A model generated the notes under the pieces. The model saw nothing but the letters and a program-made list of their open reading frames with translations. It did no database searches and was not told the origin of the DNA. A stretch of 64,000 nt of DNA from an uncultured Gammaproteobacteria bacterium. GTDB taxonomy: Bacteria > Patescibacteriota > Patescibacteriia > S139-126. Positions 4,640-29,938 of the stretch are shown in pieces; the stretch's first letter is position 1; the number at the start of each line of letters is the position of its first letter. The DNA lies in assembly GCA_964620905.1 (NCBI GenBank), contig CAZUKA010000001.1, forward strand, positions 90,890 through 154,889. The letters are read 5' to 3'. A program made the position numbers and the translations under genes.

Positions 4640-7498
4640 ATGAAAAAAAGCTCGACCAAAAAAATAAAACCAGCGGTTAAATTGGTAGTCAAAAATACAA
4701 AGACAACAAAAAAAGTAAAGGCCAACCAAATACCGTCGAGACGAAAAGCAAAAATTTCCCGCCGTCAGTCAGGCACTAGACGGTTACTTAAAAATACTGG
4801 TTTTTTAGTTAAATCCAAACCAACCAAAGTAAAAAAAGTTTTGTCAAAATTATCTCGTTTAGAAGCTGATAGTTTGGCTTTATTTAATGATGATCATGTA
4901 ACCGTTTTTAAAGATTTACAAAAAAATAATTTTGACCAAAAACTAAAATTAGATTCAGCTGCAGATATTGTTAAATCTACCAGCAGTACAACCGAGATAG
5001 CTGGACAAAATGAGTTGATTGTTGATACACAACCAAATGAAATAGGAGCCAAAATTTTATCTGTGCGTCAGCCAGCTCAAAAAATTTCTTCTCCCCACGT
5101 GGTTGATTTAAAGACCAGAGTAGTTTATGAGGACAATAATTATCAGACCGTTGCTCCTCTGACCGCTGCTACTTGGGAAGAAAGAATTTACGCTTGGGAT
5201 AAGAAAATGCAAAATATCAAAACTAACTTTATTACTTCAGATTTGCGTCAACAACAGATTTATAAATCAAATCAAAATAAAAAAGTTGGTTTCTTTTCTA
5301 GGATGATTCGGCGTTTTAGTGGTTGGTTGAGTGCCGGATATTTTTCAATGGTTAATTCTTTTTCCAACTGGGGGGAGACCCAAACAGAAAAAATTTTACA
5401 AACTGCCGCCACTGCTGATACTGATGATTTTGTTGATCAAGTACGACCAGTAAAAAAACGTTTATCACTTTGGCCGCAGGAGCTAGCCGTATCAATGCGT
5501 CTATTTATCATTTTGGCAGTTATTTTAGTTTTACCTTTTCAAGTTTATAATTTTTATTCTGATGTAAAGACACAACAGGAAATGGTTTTGGGAGCTTCTT
5601 CAACAGTTTATAATGATTTTCAGGCAGGTTTCCAAGCCTTTGAAAATTTAGATTTCAGCCAAGCCAGTGATCGGTTTATATCAGCTCAACTTAACTTGCG
5701 CCAAGTTAACGATTGGGTGCAAAAATATCCTTCGTTTTTGTTTATGCTTGCCAAATTTATACCAGGTGCTGGGGGTGAGGTATCAAGTGGTTTAAATTTG
5801 ATGGCCGCGGGTGACAAGATGGCTCAATTGGGAGTGATGCTATCTGATTTATTTACTGATTTACAAGCCAATAGTGGTGATAATTTAGCTGCGCTACAAT
5901 CATTGGAGTCAGGCTTAAATCAAGCAGCGGTTATAATGCAAGAGATTGAACTGATTTTACAAAAAATTGATTTAACTAAATTGCCAGCCAATTATCAGGA
6001 ACAATTTAGTCAATTGAATGAGATTTTACCTATTGCCCGGCAGGTTTTACAGAATGCTAGCTTAGCCAGTGGTTTTAGTGCTGACTTTTTGGGTCGAGAA
6101 CAACCCATGCGTTATTTGTTGGTTTTTCAGAATAGTAATGAATTGAGACCAACAGGAGGTTTTATAGGTTCAATTGCTGAGGTAGATATTAAAGATGCCC
6201 GAGTGCAAAATTTTTATTTACCTCCCGGAGGTGTTTATGATTTACAAGGTAATCTAGAAGTTTTGTTAGCTGCGCCTGAACCGTTGCGTTTATTGAATGC
6301 CAACTGGCAGTTGCAGGATGCCAATTGGTTTTTTGACTGGCCCACTTCAGCAAAAAAAATTATGTGGTTTTACGAAAAGTCGGGTGGTCCGACAGTAGAT
6401 GGAGTAATAGCAGTCAACTCGCAGCTCTTACCAAAGTTATTGCAACTTACTGGTCCAATATATTTAGCGGAGTTTGATCAAATTTTAACGGCTGAGAACG
6501 TTATAGACCAGTTGCAGTATGAGGTAGAAATAAACTATGACCGGTCATTAAACCAACCCAAAAAAATAATTTCCCAACTCATGCCGATTTTACTTGATCG
6601 TTTACAAAAATTGCCGCCGACTGATTTTTTCAGTTTGTTTTCAGTTGTACATAATTCTTTGCAAGCCAAAGAAATTCAATTGTATCATACCAATAGTATG
6701 TTGCAGAAAAAAATTGATACTTTTGGTTTTGCTGGTCAAATTCAACCCACAAATAGAGACTATCTAGCTGTTGTTGATACCAATATCGGTGGTGGTAAAA
6801 CTGACCAAGTGATCGGCAGTCAAGTCTTACTGACTAGCCAAATCGGTCCGCTAGGGGATGTAGTGAATACTCTAAAAATAATCAAACGTCACGATGGTGA
6901 TCCCACTGATCAATTTACCGGTCAAATGTACCGAGATTATCTTCGGATTTATGTGCCACAAGGTAGTCGTTTGCTTTCGGCTAAAGGTTTTACTCCTCCC
7001 GCTCCAACTGAGTATAATCAACCAGCCTCTGGTTTTCAACGAGATGATTATCTTGCTCAGGTAGAAAATAATGAGCGTTTTGATTTAACAACTGGCACCC
7101 GAATTACCGATGAATATGATAAAACCGTATTCGGCAATTGGCTAACACTTAACCCGGGTGAACTAGTAGAAATTGAAATAGTTTATGCTTTGCCAAAAAA
7201 TATTACTTTTAAAAAACAAAATGATGGTAACTTTATTGTTGGCTTAATTGACCAGTTATTGTCTAAATTGAATTTGTCGTTTAGTGCTGAACGCGAAGTG
7301 GCTATGCATACTTTATTTTTACAAAAACAGTCTGGCCAACCACCTTACAATTTTTCGCAGGAAATTATCTTTCCTAGCTCTTGGGAAGTACAGACCAGTG
7401 AACTACTGAAAAATACTACTGCCCAAAGAGACAATCGAGTGTATTATCAAAACCTGATCAAAGCTGATTCTTTGTGGGGATTAATTTTTATCCGTTGA
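4640..7498 (+). CDS. Large membrane-anchored protein with a lysine-rich N-terminal tail; DUF4012-like (assignment recalled from the 'ELRPTGGFIGS' motif, needs checking)
   Basis: 952 aa. First ~75 aa very K/R-rich. Single TM near aa 285 ('LFIILAVILVLPFQVY'). Conserved block 'LLVFQNSNELRPTGGFIGSIAEVDIKDARVQNFYLPPGGVYDLQGN'. Confidence 0.5.
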   Translation: MKKSSTKKIKPAVKLVVKNTKTTKKVKANQIPSRRKAKISRRQSGTRRLLKNTGFLVKSKPTKVKKVLSKLSRLEADSLALFNDDHVTVFKDLQKNNFDQKLKLDSAADIVKSTSSTTEIAGQNELIVDTQPNEIGAKILSVRQPAQKISSPHVVDLKTRVVYEDNNYQTVAPLTAATWEERIYAWDKKMQNIKTNFITSDLRQQQIYKSNQNKKVGFFSRMIRRFSGWLSAGYFSMVNSFSNWGETQTEKILQTAATADTDDFVDQVRPVKKRLSLWPQELAVSMRLFIILAVILVLPFQVYNFYSDVKTQQEMVLGASSTVYNDFQAGFQAFENLDFSQASDRFISAQLNLRQVNDWVQKYPSFLFMLAKFIPGAGGEVSSGLNLMAAGDKMAQLGVMLSDLFTDLQANSGDNLAALQSLESGLNQAAVIMQEIELILQKIDLTKLPANYQEQFSQLNEILPIARQVLQNASLASGFSADFLGREQPMRYLLVFQNSNELRPTGGFIGSIAEVDIKDARVQNFYLPPGGVYDLQGNLEVLLAAPEPLRLLNANWQLQDANWFFDWPTSAKKIMWFYEKSGGPTVDGVIAVNSQLLPKLLQLTGPIYLAEFDQILTAENVIDQLQYEVEINYDRSLNQPKKIISQLMPILLDRLQKLPPTDFFSLFSVVHNSLQAKEIQLYHTNSMLQKKIDTFGFAGQIQPTNRDYLAVVDTNIGGGKTDQVIGSQVLLTSQIGPLGDVVNTLKIIKRHDGDPTDQFTGQMYRDYLRIYVPQGSRLLSAKGFTPPAPTEYNQPASGFQRDDYLAQVENNERFDLTTGTRITDEYDKTVFGNWLTLNPGELVEIEIVYALPKNITFKKQNDGNFIVGLIDQLLSKLNLSFSAEREVAMHTLFLQKQSGQPPYNFSQEIIFPSSWEVQTSELLKNTTAQRDNRVYYQNLIKADSLWGLIFIR

Positions 7499-7556
7499 TT
7501 GAGATTTATTTTATTTTTTAATTTAGCTAATATTAGCCAAATTTTTTAATTGGGTA

Positions 7557-7585
7557 TTGACAAAAATTTTTTTTGGGTGTATAAT
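7557..7585 (+). promoter_or_regulatory. Consensus sigma70-type promoter (TTGACA-17 nt-TATAAT)
   Basis: ttgaca at 7557-7562, 17-nt spacer, tataat at 7580-7585. Lies in a 1-kb ORF-free region. Confidence 0.55.
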
Positions 7586-7591
7586 GATTTA

Positions 7592-7658
7592 TTAATAAAT
7601 TGGAGAGAGAAAATAAGTGGATTTTATATCTCTCCAAGTTCAAGGGAGAGTTTTTTAA
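7592..7658 (+). ncRNA. Candidate small RNA or transcription-attenuator leader: two mutually exclusive hairpins, the second followed by a U-tract
   Basis: Stem tggagaga (7601-7608) / tctctcca (7629-7636). Alternative stem ctctcc (7631-7636) / ggagag (7646-7651) followed by tttttt (7652-7657). Both use the tctctcc strand. Confidence 0.35.
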
Positions 7659-8116
7659 AAATTAAAGGAAGCATGAATTAGGAGGGAAAATTTGGTACTT
7701 ACCAAGTTTATGAGTAAATTTCGTTAGCCCTTTATCCGGTATTCATACTGGGTACGTGCTAAGGAATTTATTCGTTTGACATCCCGCGAGAGCGGGATCA
7801 CTCAAACATTTCCCTCGGAATTTATGTTTTCTTTGTTGGGAGCGGTTATTTGGGGAGAGAGTGACTTGCTCGGCACAAAATATTTTTTTCTGGCCGTCTG
7901 CAGGCTCGCTCCCAAATAACTTTTCCCAAATATTCTTTTCAGTTCTGGGCGTGAATATGCTTTTGCATAGCTCATGCCTTGAACTGAGGAGAATAGCCAG
8001 GTACAATACAATAAAACCAATAAAATCCTGGCAAAAAATTTAAAATAAAATACTGATGACGAATGCGGCGCCCAAATTTTTAGTCAAATTAAATGACTAC
8101 AAAGCTGACATTCGCC

Positions 8117-8229
8117 CTCAGTAATCTGGGTGCTTGGTTCGAGGCTAGTCGGTTGTCCCGCATTTGCGGGAAAATCTCTCTCCTCACAGCCGACCATGCA
8201 ATTCTAGAACCAAGCCCCAGATTAGTGAG
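8117..8229 (+). repeat. 113-nt imperfect palindrome (about 22-bp closing stem) enclosing nested hairpins and a CU-rich single strand
   Basis: Left arm ctcagtaatctgggtgcttggttc (8117-8140) vs reverse complement of gaaccaagccccagattagtgag (8207-8229): one mismatch and one bulge. Inner hairpin tcccgc-attt-gcggga (8156-8171). 'ctctctcctca' at 8177-8187. Confidence 0.5.
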
Positions 8230-8261
8230 TAATTTATATAACTTAAATTTAAGGAGTAAAG

Positions 8262-8414
8262 TTGGAATCATTAAATAGACCCGGAAGATTTTTTTATATA
8301 CTTTTTATTTCAACTATTGCTGTTATAATTTGGGGTTATCCCATTTTAATTTTGATTTTATTATTACTTACAGATGCTAAAGAAGTAAAAAGAAGTAAAA
8401 AAATTAAAAAATAA
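8262..8414 (+). CDS. Putative 51-aa single-TM membrane peptide (TTG start)
   Basis: RBS aaggag (8251-8256) 5 nt before TTG. Translation 'MESLNRPGRFFYILFISTIAVIIWGYPILILILLLLTDAKEVKRSKKIKK*'. Intrinsic terminator immediately downstream. Absent from the ORF track, which lists ATG starts of 60 aa or more. Confidence 0.3.
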   Translation: MESLNRPGRFFYILFISTIAVIIWGYPILILILLLLTDAKEVKRSKKIKK

Positions 8415-8424
8415 ATGATTTATA

Positions 8425-8451
8425 AAACTACTTGAAAAAGTAGTTTTTTTA
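8425..8451 (+). terminator. Rho-independent terminator
   Basis: aaactactt-gaaa-aagtagttt followed by tttt. Confidence 0.6.
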
Positions 8452-8491
8452 TCTTTAAAACTTTTAATTTTTATGTTAAAATATTTACATA

Positions 8492-10090
8492 ATGCTAGAA
8501 AAAATTTGGTTTAAATTGAATAATACCACAACCGGCGGGGCAATCTTGATTGCCTTTTTTTCTGTATTTGCCAAAATTATTGGATTATTTAGAGATCGAT
8601 TATTGGCCGCAAATTTTTCAGGAAGTAATATTGATATTTTGGATGTGTATTATGCCGCGTTTAAATTGCCGGATTTAGTTTTTAATACTTTGGTATTGGG
8701 AGCACTGGCTTCTGCTTTTATTCCCGTGTTTGTAAAATATTTACAAAAAAATAAGGACGAGGCCAACCAAATTGCCAATTCACTTCTCAATTTATTATTG
8801 CTGGTTGTGGGTGTATTGACAGTGGTATTTATAGTTTTTGCTCCTTGGTTTACTCATCTAGTTGTACCGGGTTTTAGTGGTGATAAATTTGAGCTAACCG
8901 TCAGATTTACTCGAATTATGTTTTTGGCTATTTTATTTTTTACGGTTTCCAATGTTCTCTCGGGAATTTTAAATTCTTATAAAAAGTTTTTATCTTTTTC
9001 TTTAGGGCCAATTTTTTATAATTTTGGAATTATTCTGGGTATTTTATTTTTTACTAAATTTCTGGGCCCAGAGGGTCTGGCGTGGGGTGTGGTTTTTGGT
9101 GCTTTGCTGCATTTATTGATTCAGTTGCCAGAAACATTTACAACGGGTTGGCGTTATCGATTTGATTTTTTCTTTAAACATCAAGCGGTGAGACGCATAA
9201 TCACTCTGATGATACCAAGAACATTTGGTTTGGCGGTGGCACAAGTCAATCAAGTAGTAACGGTGATCATTGCTTCTACTTTAACCGCTGGATCAGTCGC
9301 ATATTTTAATTTGGCCAATAATTTACAGTCTTTCCCGATTTCTGTTTTTGGTGTGTCAATTGCTATCGCCTGTTTTCCTGCCTTTTCCCAAGCTTTTGCT
9401 GAAAAAAATCAAGAAAAATTTATGGTCAGTTTTAGTGTCAATTTCAGGCGTATTTTGTACTTGATTGTGCCTTTTTCAGTTTTTCTACTTTTACTGCGAG
9501 CACAAATTGTGCGGTTGGTTTTGGGAACCGGCAATTTTACCTGGACTGATACTATCCAAACCGCCCAAACTCTGGGTTTTTTTTCCTTGTCTTTATTTGC
9601 CCAAAGTTTAATCCCACTTTTATCCAGATCCTTTTATGCTTTTGAAGATACCAAGACGCCGGTGATAGTTAGTATATTTTCTTTTTTAGTAAATATTATC
9701 GGAGCAATTGTTTTGGGACAAAAGTTTGGTATTTTTGGCGTGGCCGTAGCTTTTTCTCTTGCCTCGATTTTAAATTTTATAGCCTTACTTACTATTTTAA
9801 GGTTTAAAGTAGGTTATTTGGATGATAAAAAACTGGCTTGGTCTGCCTTGCAAATAAGTTTTTTAAGTTTACTTTGCGGTTTATTGGGTTATCTGGTGAT
9901 GCATGTCGTTGCGCCACTGGTAAATATGCGTACTTTTTGGGGAATTTTTATTCAAACTATTAGCACCTTGTTTATTGGTGGCGGGGCTTATATAATACTG
10001 TCAGTTTTATTTAGATTTGAAGAAGTTGAGATTATTGGTAAATTTTTTGGAAGATATTTGAAGATTTTTCAGAAGAATAATGGCAACTAA
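8492..10090 (+). CDS. murJ: Lipid II flippase MurJ (MviN)
   Basis: N-terminus 'GGAILIAFFSVFAKIIGLFRDRLLAANFSGSNIDILDVYYAAFKLPDLVFNTLVLGALASAFIPVF' is characteristic of MviN/MurJ. About 14 TM segments. Confidence 0.85.
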   Translation: MLEKIWFKLNNTTTGGAILIAFFSVFAKIIGLFRDRLLAANFSGSNIDILDVYYAAFKLPDLVFNTLVLGALASAFIPVFVKYLQKNKDEANQIANSLLNLLLLVVGVLTVVFIVFAPWFTHLVVPGFSGDKFELTVRFTRIMFLAILFFTVSNVLSGILNSYKKFLSFSLGPIFYNFGIILGILFFTKFLGPEGLAWGVVFGALLHLLIQLPETFTTGWRYRFDFFFKHQAVRRIITLMIPRTFGLAVAQVNQVVTVIIASTLTAGSVAYFNLANNLQSFPISVFGVSIAIACFPAFSQAFAEKNQEKFMVSFSVNFRRILYLIVPFSVFLLLLRAQIVRLVLGTGNFTWTDTIQTAQTLGFFSLSLFAQSLIPLLSRSFYAFEDTKTPVIVSIFSFLVNIIGAIVLGQKFGIFGVAVAFSLASILNFIALLTILRFKVGYLDDKKLAWSALQISFLSLLCGLLGYLVMHVVAPLVNMRTFWGIFIQTISTLFIGGGAYIILSVLFRFEEVEIIGKFFGRYLKIFQKNNGN

Positions 10091-10262: not shown

Positions 10263-12041
10263 ATGGATAGTAAACAAATTCGCAATTTTTGTATCATCGC
10301 CCATATTGACCATGGTAAATCAACTTTGGCTGATCGGTTGTTGGAAATTACCCACACGGTTGATAAAAGAAAAATGAAAGATCAACTTCTTGATCAAATG
10401 GATTTGGAAAGAGAGCGCGGAATTACTATCAAACTAACACCAGTTAGAATGCAGTGGCAGGGAGTAGAGCTTAATCTGATCGATACGCCGGGGCATGTTG
10501 ATTTTGCGTATGAAGTTTCTCGCAGTTTAGCGGCTGTGGAAGGGGCGTTATTGTTGGTTGATGCTACTCAAGGAATTGAAGCTCAAACTTTAGCAAATTT
10601 ATATTTGGCACAAAAACAAAATTTAGTGGTAATCCCAATAATCAATAAAATTGATTTACCAGCGGCGGATGTAAATACAGTTACGGAAGATTTAGTTAAA
10701 TTGTTAAAATGTTCTACCACCGATATTTTGTTGGCTTCAGGTAAAACTGGACAAGGGGTAGAGGGTATATTGAATACAATTATTGAACGGATCCCGCCGC
10801 CCCAGGGACAGGTTGATCTACCTACTCAAGCTTTAGTGTTTGATTCTTTTTATGATGAATATCGAGGAGTGGTGTCCTATGTCAGGTTGAAAAATGGTCA
10901 AATAAACAACAACGATAAAATAAAATTTCTTTCCAATCGCACTTTAACCGAAGCGCTGGAGGTTGGTTGTTTTTCTCCAACTATGACTAAGTTAGATAAA
11001 CTTTCAGCAGGCGAAATTGGTTATATAGTAACTGGTTTAAAACAAGTGGGTGAAGCTAAAATTGGCGATACCATAACCAACCACCTAAGTAGCCAAATCA
11101 CAGCGCTAGCTGGTTATGAAGAAATGAAACCAATGGTATATGCTGGTATTTATCCCAAAGAAGGTGATGCTTTTGCTGAGTTGCGCGAAGCGATGGAAAA
11201 ATTAAAATTAAACGACGCGGCTTTACTCTATGAACCAGAATCATCTTTAGCTTTGGGTTTTGGTTTTCGGTGTGGTTTTTTGGGGTTGTTGCATTTGGAG
11301 ATATTTAAAGAACGAATTAGACGAGAATATGAACTAGAAATAATAGTTACTACACCATCGGTGGCTTATCAAATAGTAGACAAAAAAGGTCAGAGTAAAA
11401 TTATTCATTCCCCAGAAGAATTTCCTTCGCAAGAAAAGCTGGAAAAAGTTTTTGAACCGATTATGCGGGTAGAAGTTTTAACACCTAAACAGTATGTCGG
11501 CAATGTAATGAAATTGGCCAGTGATAAGCGCGGTCAATATGTTGATACGACTTATTTGGATGAACAGAAGGCCATTTTGCATTATTTTTTACCACTTACC
11601 TCGCTGTTGGTTGATTTTTATGATACACTAAAAAGTATCAGTAGTGGTTATGCTAGTTTAAGCTATGATTTTTTTGATTATCAAGTCTGTGAATTGGTTA
11701 AACTTGATATTTTAGTAGCCGAAGAAAAGGTTGAGGCTTTATCGACCTTAGTCTATGAGGATCAAGCTTATCAGATAGCTAGACAAATTGTTAAGTCATT
11801 GAAAGAAGTTTTGCCTCGGCAGATGTTTGAGGTAAAAATCCAGGCTACGATTGGCGGTAAAGTGATTGCCAGCGAAAGATTGTCAGCACTGAGAAAAGAT
11901 GTCACAGCCAAACTTTATGGTGGTGATGTAACAAGAAAAAGGAAGTTATTGGAAAAACAGAAAAAAGGTAAAAAGAAAATGCAGCGCCGTGGTCGAGTAG
12001 AAATTCCCTCCGAAGCCTTTATTGCTTTATTGAAAAGATGA
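10263..12041 (+). CDS. lepA: Elongation factor 4 (LepA)
   Basis: 'IRNFCIIAHIDHGKSTLADRLLE', 'DTPGHVDF', 'NKIDL' G-motifs, and the LepA-specific C-terminus. Confidence 0.95.
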   Translation: MDSKQIRNFCIIAHIDHGKSTLADRLLEITHTVDKRKMKDQLLDQMDLERERGITIKLTPVRMQWQGVELNLIDTPGHVDFAYEVSRSLAAVEGALLLVDATQGIEAQTLANLYLAQKQNLVVIPIINKIDLPAADVNTVTEDLVKLLKCSTTDILLASGKTGQGVEGILNTIIERIPPPQGQVDLPTQALVFDSFYDEYRGVVSYVRLKNGQINNNDKIKFLSNRTLTEALEVGCFSPTMTKLDKLSAGEIGYIVTGLKQVGEAKIGDTITNHLSSQITALAGYEEMKPMVYAGIYPKEGDAFAELREAMEKLKLNDAALLYEPESSLALGFGFRCGFLGLLHLEIFKERIRREYELEIIVTTPSVAYQIVDKKGQSKIIHSPEEFPSQEKLEKVFEPIMRVEVLTPKQYVGNVMKLASDKRGQYVDTTYLDEQKAILHYFLPLTSLLVDFYDTLKSISSGYASLSYDFFDYQVCELVKLDILVAEEKVEALSTLVYEDQAYQIARQIVKSLKEVLPRQMFEVKIQATIGGKVIASERLSALRKDVTAKLYGGDVTRKRKLLEKQKKGKKKMQRRGRVEIPSEAFIALLKR

Positions 12042-12139
12042 TGAAGAAAAAAAATATTCAAAAATTGGTTTGGGTGGTGATTGCTGTTATGGTGACTTTT
12101 ACCATGGTTTTATGGTCGTTGGGAGCGGCTTATTTTTAA
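12041..12139 (+). CDS. Possible 32-aa hydrophobic peptide overlapping the lepA stop
   Basis: ATG overlaps the lepA TGA ('tgATGa' arrangement). 'MKKKNIQKLVWVVIAVMVTFTMVLWSLGAAYF*'. No independent support. Confidence 0.2.
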   Translation: MKKKNIQKLVWVVIAVMVTFTMVLWSLGAAYF

Positions 12140-29113: not shown

Positions 29114-29584
29114 ATGAAATCAAAACACTCTGTATCAGTGGAACAAGTATTTTCTCTCCTGCAAGAGAAGACACCGTGTTGTGAAATAAAGAACGAACAA
29201 ATAAAATGTTCGGCCGCTTTTCATAGCCATCGGTACTGTTATGATCTTTTTATAAAAAAACAGCAAAATGATTTTTCTTTAGTTTTCATGGATACCGAAG
29301 AGGTAAAAAGTCCAGTTGATATATTAGTTGAAGCCGGTATATTTTTTACCGAATTAAATATTTCTGAAAAAAATATTATCCAAAGGGCTGGTAGTGTACA
29401 AGTAATAGTACCGAGTACAAAAATTGTTCCAGTTTTAAAAAAATTGAATATTTATTGTCCGCAAGACGACGAAACAATTTTATTGCCGGAGGATTTTACC
29501 GGCCTAAGTAAAAAGCAGATTGACAATAAATGTTTAGAAATTGAAGACCTGGATGATTTTGATGAAAATTACAATATAGTATAA
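29114..29584 (+). CDS. Hypothetical protein (156 aa, Cys/His-rich N-terminus)
   Basis: Good RBS, own promoter and terminator. 'CCEIKNEQIKCSAAFHSHRYCYD' could be a metal-binding motif. No family recognised. Confidence 0.5.
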   Translation: MKSKHSVSVEQVFSLLQEKTPCCEIKNEQIKCSAAFHSHRYCYDLFIKKQQNDFSLVFMDTEEVKSPVDILVEAGIFFTELNISEKNIIQRAGSVQVIVPSTKIVPVLKKLNIYCPQDDETILLPEDFTGLSKKQIDNKCLEIEDLDDFDENYNIV

Positions 29585-29677: not shown

Positions 29678-29938
29678 GTGAAAATGTTCTTTAAAAAATT
29701 TATTGCCCAAAACGGCGATACCTACATATTTGTGGGTGCAAGTGTAAAAGCTATTATGCGTGATACAAATTTTGGCACCGGTTTTGCTGGTGAAGAATTT
29801 ATAAAAAGTGAAAGTTTGACTTTTCATCAAGTGATGCATCTCAAGAATCTTAAACACTATCAGTCGGGGATAGAAGCCATAAACAAAGGCACCCCAAGTT
29901 ATCTGATTGCTATTTTAGATCCGGGCGACTCAATTTGA
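29678..29938 (+). CDS. Hypothetical small protein (84-86 aa)
   Basis: RBS 'taggagtg' upstream. Flanked by promoter-like ttgaca (29617) and a strong terminator. No family recognised. Confidence 0.4.
   Translation: MKMFFKKFIAQNGDTYIFVGASVKAIMRDTNFGTGFAGEEFIKSESLTFHQVMHLKNLKHYQSGIEAINKGTPSYLIAILDPGDSI

Follow-up and report, generated by a model that had tools for sequence, protein, structure and literature searches.

A candidate membrane miniprotein gene in a variable slot behind an undescribed structured RNA of Patescibacteria

Introduction

What is encoded in the spacer that separates a large structured RNA from the gene murJ in a patescibacterial genome, and how does it relate to the RNA beside it? 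The question arises from a 64,000-nucleotide (nt) stretch of DNA, hereafter the window, which spans positions 90,890 to 154,889 of the forward strand of contig CAZUKA010000001.1 (GenBank assembly GCA_964620905.1) and comes from an organism deposited as an uncultured Gammaproteobacteria bacterium and placed by GTDB in the Patescibacteriota (S139-126). A preliminary description of the window, made from its letters and a list of its open reading frames (ORFs), proposed that the spacer holds a small hydrophobic peptide gene with a strong ribosome-binding site, a TTG start and a terminator of its own. Annotation routinely misses small membrane proteins, and those of the Candidate Phyla Radiation (CPR) are almost unexplored.

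Comparison with relatives supports the ORF (8262-8414) as a real coding gene whose product is a small hydrophobic peptide with one helix. The RNA upstream is conserved as a structure, and the slot between RNA and murJ is a hot spot in which four unrelated mini-ORFs and an empty state are found. Judging from the sequences and by analogy with known RNAs, we consider it reasonably probable that the ORF specifies an exchangeable membrane miniprotein co-transcribed with a large non-coding RNA (ncRNA), in a manner like that of dual-function RNAs. The locus provides a sequence-only proof of coding that is tied physically to an undescribed, covarying 640-nt RNA, and much of its interest attaches to the RNA and to the variability of the slot, not to this one peptide.

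Evidence for Coding

The first part of the question is whether there is a gene at all. A Shine-Dalgarno (SD) motif, AAGGAG (8251-8256, forward strand), is followed after a 5-nt spacer (TAAAG) by a TTG codon (8262-8264), and the ORF that opens there runs on the same strand to a TAA stop at 8412-8414, comprising 50 sense codons with the product MESLNRPGRFFYILFISTIAVIIWGYPILILILLLLTDAKEVKRSKKIKK, a long hydrophobic helix followed by a charged tail. An in-frame TAA lies at 8250-8252, and TTG 8262 is the next possible start. Sequence and ORF list alike confirm the strong SD, the TTG start and the peptide as first quoted. Would such a frame be expected in DNA of 20% G+C? When the 275-nt tail was shuffled with its dinucleotides preserved, 65 of 5000 sequences contained a forward-strand ORF of 50 codons or more, and stops were lacking from only 0.6% of the shuffled versions of the coding part (stop-free shuffles overall amounted to 0.1-1%). 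The ORF is longer than chance predicts.

Relatives of the locus were found via murJ, a DNA motif and the peptide, and the evidence for coding comes from the most distant ORF of the same kind (type A, see below). A homologue, P0123, emerged from an index-free phmmer search of 1.84 billion representatives; it lies at locus L073, which belongs to the other clade (nucleotide identity to the window 74% in murJ and 70% in the RNA). P0123 is a mis-started call of 100 amino acids (L073 1823-2125) that begins inside the RNA and runs into the true miniprotein ORF, which has AAGGAG-N7-TTG upstream and the product MKTTFRPGRLLYVCFISVLAVANYGFPILILIFLLISDIKEKDKKENE. Aligned over 41 residues, the peptides of the window and L073 need no gap and agree at 23 positions (~56%; z = 23 versus shuffles), and their ORFs differ by 44 mismatches in 120 nt (36% nucleotide divergence). 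Both Arg codons differ at two to three positions and still encode Arg (AGA to CGT, AGA to CGG), and there are synonymous differences in Leu (TTG to CTT), Pro, Gly, Ala and Val codons. Over the 41 codons the proportion of synonymous sites that differ (pS) is 0.57 and that of nonsynonymous sites (pN) 0.30, with a ratio of nonsynonymous to synonymous substitution (dN/dS) of ~0.36. The BLOSUM score is 118 in frame versus 18 in each other frame, and when the 44 mismatches were re-placed randomly none of 20,000 trials reached 118 and only 6-15% were free of stops. This codon-aware conservation shows that the protein is under selection, and it is the synonymous-biased conservation of the frame that the preliminary description had named as one way to check its proposal.

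A closer relative, the JGI strain L059 (98% identical), differs from the window ORF by a single synonymous substitution and a single I-to-V replacement and has no indels there, with indels present in the adjoining spacer and T-tract; this comparison alone has little power. When 5.8 billion proteins were searched through a word index, the peptide and a type-A profile retrieved only the L059 strain variant P0001, and an exact-product look-up of the window peptide gave no record. By tblastn no counterpart of the ORF was found in L003, L004 or L005, whose murJ proteins are 86-88% and RNAs 80-82% identical to those of the window. A 995-amino-acid repeat protein that also matched in the phmmer search was dismissed as a compositional match over 22 residues.

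The Predicted Product

What kind of protein would this be? Its hydrophobic core extends from F10 to L36, and the maximum 19-residue hydropathy of 2.68 exceeds that expected from composition (1.29 ± 0.53, p = 0.01); the core of the L073 peptide is likewise more hydrophobic than its composition predicts. AlphaFold2, run on the single sequence, gave one helix over residues 6-49 (pLDDT 82). Together with the codon-aware conservation in L073, these results uphold the small, SD-led hydrophobic peptide gene of the preliminary description. The positions conserved between the window and L073 are RPGR near the N terminus, F-I-S, A-V, G-[YF]-P-I-L-I-L-I and D-x-K-E. Hydropathy and the predicted fold suggest a single-pass miniprotein of the cytoplasmic membrane, the insertion of which forms part of the reading that we consider reasonably probable as a whole.

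Neither in the window nor in 74 loci was there a paralog of any of the ORF types. The best matches to family models among five slot peptides, all below curated thresholds, were DUF6773 (E = 0.04), PgaC (E = 0.056) and a holin family of PHROGs (E = 0.033). A phage holin was rejected as a candidate: the PHROG match covers 21 residues of the L073 peptide only, and the neighbors are DUF4012, murJ and lepA. Searches of the RNA-plus-ORF region against phage and plasmid records (blastn), and of the conserved RNA motif against the viral contigs of IMG/VR, gave no match.

The Upstream Structured RNA

The second part of the question concerns the RNA. On the forward strand, a sigma-70-type promoter, TTGACA-17-TATAAT (7557-7585), agrees with the consensus at 12 of 12 positions and would serve the unit formed by RNA and ORF. 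It is kept in the four closest lineages; L060, L062 and L068 have TTGACA with TATACT or TATAAT at the same place, and a TTGACA-type RNA promoter is present in every lineage for which upstream sequence was read. The structured ncRNA that follows (~640 nt, 7592-8229, forward strand) was delimited by its fold and by covariation; its last helix ends GAUUAGUGAG and closes at CCCAGAUUAGUGAG, which is window position 8229. The fold is far more stable than those of shuffled sequences (z = -19), and RNAalifold, applied to eight lineages, gave 183 pairs, of which 71 show compensatory changes. In sister species the RNA retains 80-82% nucleotide identity where the spacers are unalignable. These comparisons show selection for RNA structure in the non-coding part. 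The 3′ domain of the RNA occupies 8110-8229, and GGGGAGAGAGU and CUCUCUCCUC are invariant elements of the RNA.

The RNA, present in eight distinct lineages, corresponds to no described family. For the RNA or ORF region, Rfam 15 gave nothing but noise (miRNA or XIST, for example), whether the whole window was searched at the gathering threshold, 7450-8520 at E ≤ 10 or four homologous loci at E ≤ 0.5. A search of the literature for large RNAs in Patescibacteria, CPR or Parcubacteria found nothing relevant. A metagenome scan with a 22-nt motif of the RNA added one locus, which resembles L003.

How firmly is the RNA linked to its neighbors? In L068-70 it is encoded on the opposite strand in the interval from murJ to lepA, so that it is found beside murJ in two different arrangements, and in distant Komeilibacteria DUF4012 adjoins murJ with no RNA between them. 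At L068 (4690-5090), just upstream of the RNA promoter, we also observed three to four G+C-rich repeat copies with a period of ~135-160 nt, which could be an element like a miniature inverted-repeat transposable element (MITE) linked to the rearrangement.

Two features of the RNA itself may be added. The invariant elements GGGGAGAGAGU (~7853-7863) and AAAAUCUCUCUCCUC (~8171-8185) could form a long-range helix. A 19-nt indel separates L060 (4520-4545) from L073 (~1725) in an apical hairpin (CATGTAACATAACACATG...), which suggests that this stem tolerates changes in length. Spurious ORF calls lie inside the RNA at L073 1823-2125, at L062 4333-4738 (an odd "30-aa" gene) and at window 8093-8278; such calls can hide both the RNA and a true small ORF in databases.

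Transcription Unit and Terminator

Do the RNA and the ORF belong to one transcript? The ORF does lie directly downstream of the large structured RNA, as had been proposed, and only an A/U-rich linker (8230-8250, forward strand) separates the end of the RNA from the SD, forming the 5′ edge of the variable cassette. Because scans between the RNA end at 8229 and the ORF at 8262 found no promoter and no terminator, co-transcription is the simplest reading of the sequence.

The unit would end at an intrinsic terminator (8424-8450, forward strand), an A/U-rich 10-bp hairpin (8424-8447: AAAACUACUU, a GAAA loop, AAGUAGUUUU) that starts 9 nt past the stop, with the run of U continuing to 8450. Its fold of -11.7 kcal/mol lies well below those of dinucleotide shuffles (z = -4.6). 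A consensus scanner missed this hairpin because it requires at least three G-C pairs; the stem is A/U-rich with two G-C pairs only, and the efficiency of termination is uncertain. The terminators after the ORFs of L004 and L063 have z-scores of -4.7 and -5.6. Whose terminator is it? In L003, L005, L062 and L068 a terminator stands directly after the RNA, and the same GCACAT...ATGTGC hairpin that follows the ORF in L004 stands straight after the RNA in L005, which has no ORF. The preliminary description was right about the hairpin plus T-tract close behind the ORF, but L004 and L005 make it more natural to assign this terminator to the RNA transcription unit than to the ORF.

The 3′ boundary of the cassette is set by the promoter of murJ (TTTAAA-17-TAAAAT with a TG extension, 8454-8482, forward strand), found by promoter scans. 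Its TG-extended -10 element (TGTTAAAAT) stops 9 nt short of the start codon of murJ (ATG at 8492), which has no SD, and murJ is probably leaderless. The promoter is kept in the four closest lineages whether the ORF is present or not, and L073 has a TG-extended equivalent. These observations bear on a further explanation, namely that the ORF is a leader peptide in an attenuator, in which a ribosome at its stop modulates read-through into murJ. The stop 9 nt from the terminator stem and the position of murJ, 41 nt past the T-tract on the same strand, are what such a device would have. We think it most improbable, however, since murJ has its own conserved TG-extended promoter at its ATG, ORF or no ORF, the distance from stop to hairpin ranges from ~4 to 20 nt, L060 is without a terminator, and selection at the amino-acid level extends along the whole type-A helix, which attenuator peptides rarely show.

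Translation Signals

Would ribosomes start at this TTG? All five ORF-bearing lineages have AGGAG or AAGGAG 5-7 nt before the start. Such signals are scarce elsewhere: of 53 long ORFs in the window a single one has an SD-like motif before its first start, and allowing for nearby in-frame starts adds at most a handful of SD-led ORFs. Initiation in this genome is probably leaderless or from short leaders. Clear SD-led starts occur otherwise only at 29114 and 29684, both with TTGACA promoters of their own and leaders of ~50 nt. In this nearly SD-free genome the SD thus appears, from its distribution in the window, to be kept for leadered or internal initiation, that is, away from the 5′ end of the transcript, and this use fits an ORF 650 nt into a folded RNA, where ribosomes could load only if an AAGGAG is exposed.

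The two genes that begin at these other SD-led starts (29114-29584 and 29684-29938, forward strand) are adjacent to each other, of unknown function and without a Pfam match.

The preliminary description also suggested that RNA and peptide form a regulated unit. Around the SD and start of both type-A genes folding is weaker than in shuffles (z = +1.1 and +1.5), and neither region falls within the conserved structure of the RNA. Sequestration of the SD by the RNA was accordingly rejected as a mechanism, and regulation of that kind is unsupported.

The Variable Slot

Is the ORF an obligatory partner of the RNA? For every lineage the state of the slot was read from the stretch of DNA that links the end of the RNA to murJ. 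Type A (SD-TTG, 50 amino acids) occurs in the window, L059 and L073, with the terminator present in the window. Type B, in L004 and L074/75, consists of UAGGAG-N7-AUG and an ORF for 55 amino acids followed by a terminator. Type C, in L063-65, has AAAGGAG-N6-GUG, 68 amino acids and a terminator, and type D, in L060/61, has AAAGGAG-N6-UUG and 56 amino acids with no clear terminator. In L003/L058, L005/L071/L072, L062 and L068-70 the slot is empty and a terminator follows the RNA directly. The four ORF types are dissimilar by BLASTP and by shuffle-calibrated Smith-Waterman alignment (p = 0.07-0.95); no homology among the types was detected, and a motif "...ILLLL.D" that had seemed to be shared was dropped. 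In each of the four tails an ORF of 50-68 codons is improbable for the composition (p = 0.002-0.013), and all five slot ORFs show an enrichment of T at the second codon position. No variation exists among the copies of type B, of type C or of type D, so that no dN/dS could be obtained from them.

Two pairs of loci show the turnover most directly. L004 (type B) and L005 (empty) differ by an indel of exactly the SD plus the ORF, and have the terminator in common. L073 (type A) and L060 (type D) share ~95-98% identity across DUF4012, the promoter, the RNA in full and murJ, yet from just past the SD to the murJ promoter they cannot be aligned. Because the RNA stands alone in half of the lineages, the ORF is not its obligatory partner; the slot comparisons present it as an accessory, exchangeable cassette. 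Type A itself has 64% nucleotide identity between the clades versus 70-74% in its flanks, and because it occurs in both clades at a divergence like that of the flanks it is probably ancestral, with later replacements and losses, although horizontal exchange of type A is not excluded.

Presence, absence and replacement between near-identical strains are also what one would look for in a selfish or defensive element. Could the ORF, then, belong to a module like those of type I toxins, with a membrane-damaging peptide held in check by the long structured RNA upstream or by an unseen antisense RNA? Type I toxins such as Hok, Fst/Ldr, TisB and BsrG have fewer than 60 amino acids, one hydrophobic helix and a charged end, evolve fast, are patchily distributed and have structured RNA upstream. 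The ORF product resembles them in having fewer than 60 residues, one transmembrane helix and a charged tail, in the weak TTG start kept in types A and D, and in its fast-evolving sequences that belong to no family. The likeness is one of form only. No antisense partner was detected: a minus-strand promoter is lacking in L073, and the best candidate in the window matches at only 9 of 12 positions, not above shuffles, such scans being weak in A+T-rich DNA. The SD is open rather than sequestered, no extra copies occur in the window or the loci, and the toxin models of Pfam, NCBIfam and PADLOC gave no match. The upstream RNA, moreover, is independent, being conserved and structured alone in ORF-less lineages, and hence is not simply a toxin leader. 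We regard a toxin-like module as unlikely, if worth keeping in mind.

Weight of the Evidence

How would an exchangeable miniprotein co-transcribed with the ncRNA work? The promoter at 7557 would drive a transcript of ~860 nt, of which the first ~640 nt would fold into the ncRNA, and ribosomes would load on the exposed AAGGAG and UUG near its 3′ end. The product would be a single-pass membrane miniprotein, and the hairpin at 8424-8450 would end the unit. The peptide would be an exchangeable cargo of the RNA gene, most likely a small membrane modulator or effector, with its expression tied to the RNA promoter.

Several observations weigh against this reading. Because the searched collections hold only three type-A sequences (the window, L059 and L073), the case for coding selection comes from one informative pair, and no type-A homologue was found in those collections beyond these three contigs. 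Most close relatives lack the ORF or have another in its place. It had been called unannotated, and gene callers did pass over it in L001 and L002, assemblies with identical DNA; in L059, however, it is called as a 50-amino-acid gene (P0001). Types B, C and D are without homologues, and their hydrophobicity is largely the default of T-rich DNA (p = 0.02-0.4). None of the five slot peptides matched Pfam, NCBIfam, PHROGs or PADLOC above curated thresholds, which leaves the function unconstrained. Of the "hydrophobic helix plus Lys-rich tail" first described, the helix stands, but the Lys-rich tail is unconserved, that of L073 having a net charge of about -1. With tails that differ in charge, the positive-inside rule gives no clear topology.

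The most skeptical explanation draws on the same observations: a chance or decaying ORF in an A+T-rich spacer, with no consequential product, would be expected to be uncalled, to come and go between close relatives and to lack homologues, and T-rich DNA yields hydrophobic frames by default. Against it stand the codon-aware conservation at 36% divergence, equaled in none of the permutations, the frame intact without an indel in L059 and L073, the conserved SD and TTG, and the rarity of stop-free shuffles. The 44 differences in 120 nt argue, too, against a recent horizontal origin of the L073 copy. We therefore give this explanation very little credence. Loss of the frame from close relatives had been proposed as grounds for abandoning the gene; taken literally it has happened in most of them, although the frame is kept in L059 and L073, and the comparison of slots indicates that absence reflects cassette turnover and not a lack of coding.

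Relation to Known Systems

Dual-function RNAs are the closest known kind in mode of action. They include RNAIII/hld and Psm-mec of Staphylococcus aureus, SgrS/SgrT of Escherichia coli and SR1/SR1P of Bacillus subtilis (PMC12612679). RNAIII, with 514 nt and 14 stem-loops, encodes the 26-amino-acid, membrane-targeting delta-hemolysin (hld), and Psm-mec encodes a 22-amino-acid hydrophobic helix (PMC12612679). By analogy, RNAIII would be the best parallel to our locus: in both a single transcript, predicted here, would combine a structured RNA with a short SD-led ORF. The differences are that in the window the ORF is appended past the 3′ end of the fold and not inside it or 5′ of it, that the RNA is larger, belongs to an undescribed class in Patescibacteria and has base-pairing targets that are not known, and that the slot holds unrelated alternatives in sister strains. 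In some SgrS and RNAIII homologues the coding part is dispensable. We know of no cassette-like turnover of ORFs in the classical dual-function RNAs. What is new, then, would be the undescribed RNA class, the 3′-appended ORF and the way in which closely related strains exchange unrelated ORFs, like cassettes, in a single slot.

Among large RNAs, the closest parallel by analogy is the OLE RNA of Bacillota with oapA. OLE is an ornate RNA of ~600 nt whose gene adjoins that of the membrane protein OapA, which has four transmembrane helices and a CNNM-like fold (PMC11332333). The two systems are alike in that a large RNA gene lies beside a gene for a membrane protein. They differ in that OapA is a constant partner with four transmembrane helices, whereas the protein here is a single helix of 50 amino acids, optional and variable. 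Nor is the RNA itself a form of OLE: the models for OLE (RF01071), ROOL, GOLLD and raiA gave no match to 7450-8520 at E ≤ 10, and OLE gave none at four homologous loci at E ≤ 0.5.

The parallel with OLE raises another explanation, that the ORF acts in cis as a membrane tether, its nascent hydrophobic chain bringing the RNA to the membrane as a minimal counterpart of OLE/OapA. OLE RNA is localized at the membrane via the adjacent membrane-protein gene (PMC11332333), the RNA studied here lies in two arrangements beside the envelope genes murJ and DUF4012, and the four unrelated ORF types have only an SD, 48-68 codons and hydrophobic segments in common, as would suffice for a tether. Half of the RNA-bearing lineages, however, do without an ORF, the constraint on specific type-A sequences (RPGR, G-[YF]-P-ILILI) would be unneeded by a generic tether, and composition accounts for most of the hydrophobicity of types B, C and D. 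We judge a tether to be improbable, a little more so than a toxin-like module. A broader conjecture, drawn by analogy and about as doubtful as the toxin, is that the RNA represents a new ornate class associated with the envelope, with a slot for interchangeable peptides, and forms with them a membrane ribonucleoprotein, a minimal analogue of OLE-OapA under diversifying selection (from interactions between host and episymbiont or with phage, for example).

A last comparison is with small inner-membrane regulators. MgrB, AcrZ, KdpF and MgtS are single-transmembrane proteins of 30-50 amino acids, SD-led, missed by annotation and encoded near envelope or transport genes, and members of this class are usually conserved with their partner gene. 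Here again the likeness is in form only: murJ is constant and the peptide is swapped or absent.

What would follow from an exchangeable miniprotein expressed with the ncRNA? If RNA and peptide act together, the locus would offer a compact model for the coupling of large bacterial RNAs to membranes, and if they are separate it would still be a clear platform for the expression of exchangeable miniproteins from an ncRNA transcript.

Neighboring Genes

The gene order around the locus is glycosyltransferases, DUF4012 (4640-7498), a 990-nt gap, murJ (8492-10090) and lepA, and the ORF sits in this gap, bounded on one side by the 3′ end of the independent ncRNA gene and on the other by the terminator. 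Further downstream on the forward strand we observed a second small membrane ORF (12038-12139), which encodes 33 amino acids (MMKKKNIQKLVWVVIAVMVTFTMVLWSLGAAYF) and has a 4-nt overlap with the lepA stop. Gene calls for it exist in the Logan assemblies, and L071 has a conserved version (MKKKNIQKLIWVVISLMVTFTMVLWSIGAAYF).

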